64,000 bases of DNA, from positions 19,489 to 83,488 of the forward strand of contig PIWD01000001.1 in assembly GCA_003354005.1 (NCBI GenBank), read 5' to 3'. Of this stretch, positions 27,901 through 29,830 are shown one piece after another. The translations under genes and the position numbers were made by a program. Within the stretch, counting starts at the first letter, position 1. Every line of letters starts with the position of its first letter. The stretch comes from Gammaproteobacteria bacterium. Lineage in GTDB: Bacteria; Pseudomonadota; Gammaproteobacteria; PIWD01. Under the pieces are notes generated by a model that was not told the DNA's origin, searched no databases, and saw nothing but the letters and a program-made list of their open reading frames with translations.

Positions 27901-29544
27901 TTGAAAAGGGACTCAAATTGGGTTAGGGATCTGAGTCGTCTTGGTGCAATAAAAAAACACTTGAGTGCAGTAGAAGGCTCAAAAGAAGGAGGCTCAGAAG
28001 TTGTCTCTTCATTTTTTAGGTATCAGTCTTTATCTCCATCTTACTCCCCAAAAAATCTTGCCGTCTCTGCACTAAATGCTTTAGCGTATAAATTTATCAA
28101 AGGAGTTGAATTATCTGCGCTATCTCAGCCTATAGGGCTAAAATTTCGTAATGGAAAGACAGGAGGTTTCAAGTTCCTTCAGTATACGCTATGGTGTGTT
28201 GAACACTATGCTTGTGTTTATATATTTTTTAATCGTGGTGATTCTCTTTATATCACTAGTATTGACTCTAATAAGCATTATGTGCCAAGTGTACATGAAA
28301 TTAATCTTGAGCGATTTTTTAAAAATTGCAAAATTAGGATATCTTTCAGATTAATAGATAAGTTAAGTACGCTTTCGATGGCTATGGATATTGTTAATGA
28401 AAGTGTTTTATCACGCTGCACTTACACAAACATAGAGGTGAGGAGCAGTTTATCTGATGATGAAGTCCAAAAATTTTTTATTAAATTGGATACGATACCA
28501 TCTCGTAATGTTTATGAACTTGCTTCTAAGTACTACCATGTTATCCGCTCACCATGTTGTCATGAGTACAAGTTAATGACACCTCTAGAATGGAAAACTA
28601 TTAGCATTGAATCATCCAAAGTGGTTTCATCTTATGTATGTGGGAAAGGTACAACTCCATATATTGTACGGATCAATCGTGGAAGGTTCGATGAAATTTA
28701 CAAAAGTTTAAAGGTGGAGTGTCTCGTAGATCTTATTCTCAGCTATGTTGATGGTGCATATCTTGCTGCTACAGAAAGAGGTATGCATATTAAGGAAGCT
28801 GCTAGAAAAAAAATGAAAATAGATGAAGAAATTGATAGCCGAAAGCAAAAATGTGATTGGAAGATCCTCCGTTTAGTGCTTTTCTTTCTTACGCAGAACT
28901 TATTATATTTCTTTTCGTGTGGCTAGATTTTCATAGTATGCATGATTGTAACAATCGTACTTAGCATTAGTTTTTTCTTGTGTATTCGAGGTTAGCTAGG
29001 ATCTTACAATTTAAAATGTGCAGTTTGTACGTGTATTGGTTATGGCTTGCAAATGTACGCGTATTTTCTAATTCTTAGGTTTTGTATTGTTGCTACATTT
29101 TTCGCAGTCCCGAGCTGGCTCACTATAGTCTTAAGCATTTTTTGTCTCATTGGCGCAGTTTTTATGTTATTAAGACTAGCGGCAGAAATCCTGGATGTGA
29201 AGACTAATGCTGTCTATGGTGTTGAATTATGCATAGTGTGTGTTCATAAGTACCTAAGTGTGGTTGGTATTTGTTCGTGTGTATTACTACTTGTCATATC
29301 TCCTTACTTGTCGGCATCAGTAGGTATTTATTATGCTGCATTTGTTTACAGTACGTTGATCAGCACGTGTTATTTCATCTATCAGGTTTTTGAGTACGAG
29401 CCAAATTATGATGCTGATCCTTATCCTATGGATGCCTTTAATTGCGGGAAGAGGGCAGAAGTATTGGAGAGTATGTTAAGAGACATTAAAAAAGGTGAGA
29501 CCATCGGTCAGGAACATCCACCTGGATTGGTATCGAATCCTTGA
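27901..29544 (+). pseudogene. Frameshifted paralogue of 25915-27786 (split into ORFs 27901-28926 and 29047-29544)
   Basis: Shared stretches (VSSF.(E/R)YQ.L..., LA..(M/A)L(D/N)AL.YKFI, LVLFFL.Q.LL.FF.GC, ..DPY(S/P)); about 120 bp out-of-frame gap; upstream AACTATCAGGAA.TT.CAGTTTGAAAA duplicated too. Confidence 0.6.
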
Positions 29545-29830
29545 CGTTCTCAGAGAGCAGCAGTATACTCTATCTATGAAAATAAGGAAAGTGTACAAAT
29601 TTAGGATAAGGTCGGGTGCTGAACAAGTCGCTCAACTGGGATAGTTTTCGGGTTGTTGTCGCTTTGTTCGGGATAAGTCCGTTTTTAGTGGTGGGGCTAA
29701 CCGTGTTAGCCTGTAGAGAGAATGTATTGGCAGCTTCTGTGAATCAGGCTTCCTGCAGATGAATGATCTAGTAGTGGTCTGAATCTCTATATTAGGAATC
29801 ACCTTCCTTCAGGGAGGCGAGGATGTCAAA
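29540..29830 (+). mobile_element. Miniature IS200/IS605-family (TnpB-only type) derivative, copy 1: promoter + TnpB N-terminal mini-ORF + conserved 3' segment ending in SD-ATG
   Basis: About 80% identical to 50527-50802; mini-ORF 29576-29644 MKIRKVYKFRIRSGAEQVAQLG* matches the TnpB/OrfB N-terminal HTH (YKFRxxPxxEQ..L); TTGACG-N17-TATACT at 29541-29569. Confidence 0.6.

Follow-up and report, generated by a model that had tools for sequence, protein, structure and literature searches.

A probable decayed IS605-type element with an omega-RNA-like tail directly upstream of ftsK in a gammaproteobacterium

In the 64,000-nt stretch of contig PIWD01000001.1 analysed here (termed the window, with positions counted from its first letter), the ftsK gene of a gammaproteobacterium is directly preceded by an element of about 290 bp, which probably represents the remains of an IS605-type insertion sequence (IS). 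The element, designated copy 1, spans positions 29540–29829 on the + strand and ends 16 nt 5′ of the ftsK start codon (ATG at 29846); the FtsK domains of the downstream gene were confirmed with Pfam. Pairwise alignment identified the segment at 50527–50803 as a second instance of the same element (copy 2). The similarity between both copies opens at CTTGAC (29540 and 50527, respectively) and closes at ...GAGGATGTCAA (29829 and 50803), with both edges being sharp. The original prediction, which had placed the two elements at 29540–29830 and 50527–50802 with about 80% identity, was correct to within 1 nt and agrees with the 82% identity found over aligned bases (77% with gaps, including an 11-nt indel). 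A 23-nt pattern of the tail has exactly two matches in the window, copies 1 and 2, versus 0.00 expected by chance. The left side of copy 2 is about 30 nt longer than that of copy 1 (50496–50557; E 1.5e-7 with a hidden Markov model (HMM) of the left region), and the complete copy 2 extends over 50496–50803 (+) with its right end 5 nt 5′ of the ileS start codon (ATG at 50809). No direct repeats or target-site duplications were found in the flanks of copies 1 and 2.

Copy 1 begins, as had been proposed, with a promoter-like site, TTGACG-17-TATACT at 29541–29569 (+), which matches the sigma-70 consensus at 10 of 12 positions; the corresponding site of copy 2 is TTGACA-17-TACACT. The tnpB 5′ remnant that follows (29576–29686, +) comprises about 37 codons and was identified both with the Pfam profile PF12323 (HTH_OrfB_IS605) and by blastx. 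It starts with a mini open reading frame (ORF), MKIRKVYKFRIRSGAEQVAQLG, at 29576–29644 (ATG at 29576), which is closed by an in-frame TAG, and the homology goes on behind this stop codon as FSGCCRFV. Read past the TAG, the mini-ORF of copy 1 scored 26.2 bits (E 5.7e-6) against PF12323, and the 43-aa product of the open 43-codon mini-ORF of copy 2 (50563–50694) scored 42.8 bits (E 3.7e-11), the gathering cut-off being 21 bits. External relatives were collected with a degenerate right-end pattern, which matched 11 IMG/VR loci and at least 120 metagenome loci; 131 loci were analysed, and in 55 of them an ORF of at least 300 aa ends at the right end (C-termini such as ...NILAAGLAVTVCGENV...). When the 55 full-length TnpBs of this survey were used as blastx reference, the N-terminal remnants aligned to TnpB residues 3–39/41 (copy 1, E 6e-7; copy 2, E 1.5e-9), the best-matching proteins being 405–418 aa long. 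The mini-ORF can therefore be regarded, as originally suggested, as the start of the N-terminal helix-turn-helix domain of TnpB. A protein homologue search with the 40-aa N-terminal remnant gave no candidates, and an exhaustive HMMER search with the copy 2 ORF, at E≤1e-3, gave only 11 matches; most of these are short fragments of TnpB N-termini, and they are uninformative about the donor.

A second coding remnant, GLTVLACRENVLAASVNQASCR followed by a stop codon, is located at 29694–29762 (+), in a frame that now differs from that of the 5′ remnant. It corresponds to the last ~22 residues of TnpB (GLTVLACRENVLAASVNQ...) and aligns to residues ~374–394 of TnpBs of 403–405 aa (...NILAAGHAVLACGE...). 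Individually these blastx matches are weak (E 0.03–0.16); the counterpart in a further copy of the window (copy 3, see below), ATGRVALTCEETALADSMKQEHLVMGDQ with its stop codon, aligns to TnpB residues 375–405 with E 3e-5. Between the two remnants lies the internal deletion junction (29680–29693, +), located by alignment of copies 1 and 2 as WNR-VTL / VAG-LTVLxCGE. It reads ...RFVWNR-VTL/VAG-LTVLVCGE... and is the same in both copies, at two unlinked sites. According to this alignment and the blastx coordinates, tnpB residues ~40–373 (about 1 kb) are absent from copies 1 and 2; in full-length relatives the TnpB N-terminus is about 1200 nt away from the right end. Because the junction is common to both copies, they derive from a single deletion derivative. 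Copy 2 lacks a single nucleotide and, in hairpin 2, a further 11 nt; adding back the single base restores an in-frame fusion, which stop codon or frameshifts now break in both copies. The proposal of an internally deleted IS200/IS605 derivative is thus well founded, with N- and C-terminal TnpB remnants present and ~1 kb missing between them. A recurrent mini-TnpB architecture was considered and rejected: no N-terminal remnant lies less than 900 nt away from the right end in any of the 131 external loci, among which the promoter-tail architecture with ~37 N-terminal tnpB codons seen in copies 1 and 2 is likewise absent.

The tail of copy 1, about 150 nt in length and closing with ...GGAATCACCTTCCTTCAGGGAGGCGAGGATGTCAA at 29829, had been suggested to correspond to the omega-RNA/right-end region of such elements. 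A covariance model (R1) was built from 26 external tails of 150 nt each, none of them from the window and one of them from an Escherichia coli plasmid element (L092), and was run over the whole window with filters switched off. R1 matched copy 1 with 95.2 bits (E 1.1e-22, model positions 1–149), the tail of copy 3 (11095–10950, −) with 85.4 bits (E 3e-20) and copy 2 with 60.6 bits (E 6e-14). The next best match in the window has 10.9 bits (E 0.27), so that nothing besides the three tails exceeds 11 bits; external members range from 40 to 139 bits. One external locus (L164) holds three R1 matches within about 2 kb. In the family consensus, a stem of 5 bp (helix 1) lies within tnpB coding sequence and covaries at 5 of 5 pairs; the consensus further contains CCUG...CAGG, which pair over a long range and are conserved, as well as the right-end hairpin. 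In all, 97% of the cells are paired, and the observed covariation was reached by none of 500 shuffles. Copy 1 retains 16 of the 18 modelled pairs; its module (29678–29829, +) is made up of stem 1 and the long-range pairing, together with variable hairpins and the hairpin of the right end.

The right-end hairpin itself (29800–29829, +) is formed by CACCUUCC-UUCA-GGGAGGCG, followed by GAGGATGTCAA, and terminates at TCAA (29826–29829). Copy 1 thereby displays a right end of the IS200/IS605 kind, with CACCTTCC-TTCA-GGGAGGCG, the 6 nt AGGATG and the TCAA ending at position 29829. The right boundary is fixed by external elements with a common tail and differing flanks (L082/L083 and L081/L085), since their similarity is lost directly after GTCAA. 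E. coli plasmid pISHS7_3 (NZ_CP092255.1, L092) carries a gene annotated as "RNA-guided endonuclease InsQ/TnpB" beside a divergent IS200/IS605 tnpA, and by blastn the copy 1 tail matches the 3′ end of this gene (68.9% identity, E 5e-4). In an Rfam scan of the window, the gathering score was reached by two transfer RNAs only; at E≤10, HgcC (RF00062) gave a weak match to the copy 1 tail (16.4 bits, E 0.2, gathering threshold 50), and no other family usable as an omega-RNA model matched the tail. Taken together, the assignment of the tail to a putative tnpB-3′/right-end (omega-RNA) module, as had been suggested, is supported by R1, a model built solely from external tails. In TnpB omega-RNAs the guide occupies about 16 nt directly 3′ of the right end. 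In copy 1, the would-be 16-nt guide is accordingly predicted, by position alone, at 29830–29845 (+), reaching up to the ftsK ATG, and the predicted candidate target matching this guide is TTATC followed by ACAGAGAATTCTTTCA.

To which kind of insertion sequence the ancestor belonged is indicated by the relatives and by further relics in the window. TnpA matches were found in 26 of the 131 external loci, and 25 of these 26 are divergent. In the closest full-length relatives (L137, L103, L143 and L140), tnpA starts on the other strand 11–27 nt 5′ of the tnpB ATG. A TTGAC-17-TATAAT promoter is situated 6–10 nt 5′ of the tnpB ATG in these four and in L197 (compare CTTGACGTTTCCATAGACCAAGAGTATGAT in L137 with CTTGACGTTCTCAGAGAGCAGCAGTATACT in copy 1), and in intact relatives its −35 box falls within tnpA codons ~4–5 of the opposite strand. 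The tnpA start triplet is CAT in the relatives and CAG, CGT or CAC in the relics; a tnpA start at the ATG within TTGACAT was rejected, since the relatives place the start two codons further upstream. With TnpA proteins of L092 and the closest relatives as tblastn queries, a remnant was detected at 42959–43039 on the strand opposite to the relic it belongs to (copy 4). It reads MSRNI, a stop codon and TGRHCLLNMHVHLILVTKYRR, corresponds to TnpA residues 1–29 including the HUH motif (HVH), and has an E-value of 2.4e-9 (1.6e-6 in an earlier tblastn search). Further remnants are present at 27804–27863 (copy 5, E 1e-3) and, weakly, at 11156–11224 (copy 3). Copy 1 itself has kept of tnpA only the promoter stretch equivalent to codons ~1–5. 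Since both relatives and sibling relics carry tnpA on the opposite strand at the promoter, the ancestor was IS605-type and not tnpB-only; judged from these comparisons, the putative ancestor is an IS605-type element with divergent tnpA. The original classification as an IS1341-like, tnpB-only element is contradicted by the divergent tnpA of the closest relatives, by TnpA codons 1–29 in copy 4 and by the trace in copy 5. Likewise, the promoter-like site of copy 1 is, by comparison with relatives, the presumed old tnpB promoter, which overlaps the opening codons of tnpA, and it may still be active.

At the left side, members of the family show TTATC, ~15–16 nt ending in ...GTAAAAC, the hairpin CCCCGYCCTTYAGGGCGGGG and ATATAAGGCG; insertions are found 3′ of TTATC, about 15–16 nt before the left-end hairpin. 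Such a left end next to TTATC occurs in decayed form in copies 3 and 4 and is lacking in copy 1. The left-region HMM recovered copies 2, 5 and 6, failed to recover copy 1, and left nothing to the left of 29540 that could be attributed to the element. Due to this result, copy 1 is considered truncated at the −35 box without a recognisable left end. The small hairpin abutting its left edge (29525–29541) had been taken as a sign of insertion next to stem-loops. Its sequence is unrelated to the right-end and left-end hairpins, family insertions lie 3′ of TTATC, and the matching segment of the sibling relics is a tnpA 5′ coding remnant, in which the stretch just 5′ of the −35 box codes R-T-G-R-H-C of TnpA. 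As nothing left of 29540 belongs recognisably to the element, the hairpin shows no link to insertion, and this part of the original prediction is unsupported.

Copies 2 (50501–50519) and 3 (11155–11137, −) each contain, within this tnpA remnant bordering the −35 box, a perfect 6–7-bp hairpin (GGAACAG..CTGTTCC) followed by a T-rich run, which a scan flagged as terminator-like. Intact relatives have no perfect hairpin at this place, and copy 1 has the different 5-bp hairpin there. These hairpins may be due to chance or may represent an arrangement of terminator and promoter.

Both predicted copies are real, and the window contains more than these two. A joint model of copies 1 and 2 recovered two further pieces in an nhmmer search; together with the results of tblastn, R1 and the left-region HMM, 5–7 relics of the IS605 lineage were found in all. 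Copy 3 (11267–10950, −) has a full tail, ends 30 nt 5′ of an hsp20-like gene and shows the order TTTATC/AAGCTCG..., decayed left end, deleted-tnpA remnant, promoter and then directly the tail. Its tnpB deletion is unlike that of copies 1 and 2, with the N-terminal remnant gone (left-region HMM E 7e-49, obtained as a seed sequence). Copy 4 (43110–42932, −) consists of a left part only, ~35 nt 5′ of a P-type-ATPase-like gene, in the order TTTTATC/GTATGTGTAGTAAAAC (GTAAAAC and decayed hairpin), TnpA codons 1–29 on the opposite strand and the promoter TTGACA-17-TACACT. In both copies 3 and 4 tnpA is deleted such that ~30 N-terminal codons are fused to a few terminal codons. Copy 5 (27804–27868, +) is a strongly decayed tnpA-5′/promoter fragment (left-region HMM E 1e-5), and copy 6 (10118–10075, −; repeat family D9) is a fragment of the left-end/deleted-tnpA junction (E 3e-3). 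A possible copy 7 (57446–57565, +) is doubtful: it would be a very decayed right end, ...GAGAGTAGAGGATGTCAG, 67 nt 5′ of acpP, and is the 10.9-bit match of R1 mentioned above. Close to the end of the window, a weak TnpA-like tblastn match (63804–63965, −; E 0.012) could be another relic or a chance match. No tnpA or tnpB gene is present within the 64-kb window.

With its TnpB homologies, the junction in common with copy 2, the membership of its tail in the external family, the tnpA and left-end remnants of its siblings and the absence of the element at orthologous ftsK loci, copy 1 is probably, albeit with some reservation, a decayed and now immobile fossil of an IS605-type element with an internal tnpB deletion. 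In the proposed history, the TnpA (Y1/HUH) of the ancestor would have moved it by single-strand peel-and-paste transposition, with insertion 3′ of TTATC and an end at ...GAGGATGTCAA, and the tnpB 3′ end together with the right end would have encoded the omega-RNA guiding TnpB. An in-frame deletion of ~1 kb would then have joined tnpB codon ~37 to codon ~374, with tnpA being lost as well, to give a non-autonomous cassette of promoter, mini-ORF and omega-RNA resembling a palindrome-associated transposable element (PATE). This cassette, presumably mobilised in trans, would have arrived at at least two sites, 5′ of ftsK and 5′ of ileS, and would since have undergone ~20% neutral decay, visible as stop codon, frameshifts and the 11-nt indel. 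Copy 1 would in addition have lost everything to the left of the −35 box, that is the left end and the tnpA remnant. Given that copy 1 has no left end, excision by TnpA would no longer be possible, and the sole activity plausibly left to it would be transcription that starts at the old tnpB promoter and crosses the omega-RNA scaffold to enter ftsK.

The even divergence of copies 1 and 2 fits a neutral decay of old copies. Identity amounts to 80% in the promoter, 79% in the tnpB 5′ remnant, 82–84% in the tail and 88% in the right end, and for the first 22 codons a hand count gives 8 non-synonymous and 4 synonymous changes. Neither the identity of any segment nor the substitutions in the 22-codon ORF are out of line with the remainder, and with identity being even at 79–88%, coding or structural constraint on a part of the copies was rejected. 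Four observations weigh against the fossil interpretation. The copy 1 scaffold scores like many intact external members, so that a working omega-RNA is possible; no full-length tnpA/tnpB donor was seen, with 64 kb of this genome read; the co-orientation of relics near start codons and the cut exactly at the −35 box could reflect promoter selection; and only two copies have the junction in common, so that segmental duplication or gene conversion could replace transposition. A pattern specific for copies 1 and 2 had no matches in the genome contigs and none in the metagenome contigs searched. The source organism is distant from all genomes of the collections.

The genomic context is of relevance for the possibility, considered rather unlikely, that the relics have been exapted and now serve as promoter and 5′ untranslated region (UTR) of ftsK and likewise of ileS, hsp20 and the P-type ATPase gene, selection having kept the old tnpB promoter and the GGAGGA of the copy 2 right end as ribosome-binding site. 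All relics are oriented like the gene at their right-end side, on both strands of what appears to be one replichore (GC skew is mostly positive, with no switch in the window). Right ends are located 16, 5 and 30 nt before the start codons of ftsK, ileS and hsp20, respectively, and GGAGGA is located 12 nt 5′ of the ileS ATG. Furthermore, the TTGAC of the −35 box is invariant in copies 1–4, which all keep promoter-like matches, and copy 1 is cut exactly at this box. The promoter segment, however, is conserved between copies 1 and 2 no better than the remainder, and short intergenic spacers push any tolerated insertion close to a start codon. As to the co-orientation, four to six elements give weak statistics, and the pattern is merely suggestive of either counter-selection of disruptive orientations or exaptation of outward promoters, both of which would produce it. 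With regard to the copy 2 right end, an ATG at 50797 within it lies in the ileS frame (50792–50811); the real ileS start together with its ribosome-binding site may be element-derived.

The decayed-fossil interpretation also has to be weighed against an active, non-autonomous PATE, in which the omega-RNA of copy 1 would be used by a TnpB and the element mobilised by a TnpA, both acting in trans. The module from stem 1 to the right end (~145 nt), much longer than TnpA requires, persists in at least six deletion derivatives of independent origin, namely copies 1/2, copy 3 and the external L087, L089, L108, L147, L152 and L188, and most of them retain promoter-like sequence upstream of it. Copy 1 scores 95 bits and preserves most of the modelled pairs, and PATEs often encode omega-RNAs which are acted on in trans (Meers et al., PMC10055086). 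Nevertheless, an active element at this site is improbable. Copy 1 lacks the left-end hairpin and a TTATC-adjacent boundary, which would preclude excision by TnpA, and in the absence of excision guide-directed homing would have no empty site as target. The ~20% divergence and the indels between copies 1 and 2 speak for old, inactive copies, copy 2 lacks 11 nt of hairpin 2, and the window contains neither a tnpA nor a tnpB gene.

A more far-reaching scenario, which we regard as a long shot, is a burst of omega-RNA-bearing IS605 mini-elements domesticated as cassettes of terminator hairpin, promoter and structured leader in a Coxiellales/Legionellales-like bacterium. If true, these cassettes would drive the housekeeping genes ftsK, ileS, hsp20, the P-type ATPase gene and possibly acpP, with the omega-RNA scaffold as 5′-UTR and a guide position overlapping each start codon, and TnpB or a nuclease-dead TnpB-like protein encoded at another place in the genome could bind the leaders or matching DNA and thereby co-regulate the genes.

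That the element is a native, non-transposon leader of ftsK or a small-protein gene (a riboswitch, an attenuator or a 22-aa leader peptide), as its position directly 5′ of ftsK with a promoter-like site and a short ORF might suggest, is hardly credible. The same element precedes the unrelated genes ileS and hsp20, no Rfam family matches it at gathering score, and the ORF is a TnpB fragment with a stop codon in copy 1 and neutral-looking substitutions. The best FtsK match is 52% identical and is found among Coxiellaceae/Legionellales-like metagenome-assembled genomes (window GC content ~40%). In the ftsK loci of the 80 closest relatives (717 kb), searched with nhmmer and the covariance model, no family member was detected upstream of ftsK or elsewhere, compared to three strong tails in the 64-kb window. 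A leader conserved in other taxa, which the original prediction had named as contrary evidence, is thus absent from these relatives, and the native-leader explanation is effectively refuted.

There is next to nothing left in favour of a miniature inverted-repeat transposable element (MITE) that has terminal inverted repeats and relies on a DDE transposase, or of a repetitive extragenic palindrome (REP/REPIN, moved by a RAYT): the left TTGACGTTCTC and TTGACATCCTC, the reverse complement of the right end, do resemble an inverted repeat, with CTTGAC(A/G)TTCTC and the reverse complement of GAGGATGTCAA agreeing at 9 of 11 bases, but the left motif corresponds to tnpA codons 1–5 and the tnpB −35 box in intact relatives, copies 2, 3 and 4 reach further left (copies 3 and 4 as far as an IS605-type left end flanked by TTATC), and neither target-site duplications nor REP doublets were found. 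The left extensions and the identity of the motif refute the inverted-repeat reading.

Among the neighbouring genes, 25915–27786 and 27901–29544 are tandem, strongly diverged paralogues with 26–31% amino-acid identity and no Pfam match, each followed by an IS605 relic. The second paralogue is split into two ORFs (27901–28926 and 29047–29544), the latter of which represents the C-terminal part, with homology to the 25915–27786 product up to residue 141 of 165; the aligned C-terminal part of the pair appears hydrophobic. At a distance from these, 3055–5814 (−) encodes a 919-aa ORF, which consists largely of tandem coding repeats of ~117–132 nt (repeat families D1–D5 and D7).

For annotation, the 290 bp 5′ of ftsK and the siblings at ileS and hsp20 should be treated as IS605 relics with omega-RNA-like tails, not as regulatory RNAs or small-protein genes. 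For the history of the genome, they would point to one IS605 lineage that expanded long ago and has since decayed, in a part of the Gammaproteobacteria for which sampling is poor. That independent derivatives retain the module is in line with the published proposal that selection favours PATEs as carriers of guide RNAs. The relics would be a modest example of transposon exaptation only if their promoters turned out to drive essential genes.

Comparison with known systems places copy 1 closest to IS605-group insertion sequences, represented by L092 and the closest metagenomic members L103, L140, L143, L137 and L105. In common with these are the N- and C-terminal tnpB remnants, the overlap of the promoter with the tnpA 5′ end, the omega-RNA/right-end module with its terminal ...GGAATCnCCTTCCTTnAGGGAGGnGAGGATGTCAA and, in sibling relics, the TTATC next to the left end. 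In contrast to these, copy 1 has lost ~1 kb of tnpB, all of tnpA and the left end, and with its stop codon and frameshifts encodes no functional protein. IS1341-type, tnpB-only members with the same right end do exist (L156, L210 and L126); the sibling relics of the window and the closest relatives differ from them in that the promoter is directly preceded by tnpA sequence, which lies on the opposite strand.

At the RNA level, the tail resembles omega-RNAs, the sense overlapping transcripts of IS1341-type genes (sotRNAs) and HgcC. HgcC and sotRNAs have a right-end-like hairpin with a UUCA tetraloop in common (PMC4615843), which is also present in copy 1. Further similarities are the overlap of the module with the tnpB 3′ end and the right end, the covariation of the family stems and the order of UUCA-tetraloop terminal hairpin and GAGGAnGUCA. 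In contrast, copy 1 stays below the 50-bit gathering score of the Rfam family and has no cognate TnpB gene nearby.

PATEs and terminal-only IS605 remnants have been described in Haloquadratum walsbyi (PMC3119063), Halanaerobium hydrogeniformans (PMC7290912) and Geobacillus stearothermophilus (PMC10055086). Like these, copy 1 is too short to encode a transposase (290 bp), derives from an IS605-type element by loss of the core, with the last tnpB codons and the right end kept, and lacks terminal inverted repeats and target duplication; PATEs often carry an omega-RNA as well. They possess near-terminal palindromes at both ends, of which copy 1 has the right one only, and copies 1 and 2 additionally hold ~37 N-terminal tnpB codons. 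Complete PATEs of the same right-end family, ~210–300 nt long and free of coding sequence, were found in metagenomes and IMG/VR (L089, L108, L147 and L152), in the order TTATC, left-end hairpin, promoter-like sequence and omega-RNA module. The earlier suggestion of a MITE or PATE derivative thus holds in so far as copy 1 is PATE-like, with neither terminal inverted repeats nor a duplication; as a complete MITE or PATE it fails, since its left end is missing. In conclusion, IS605 remnants of this kind are already well known, and copy 1 is one more instance of them.

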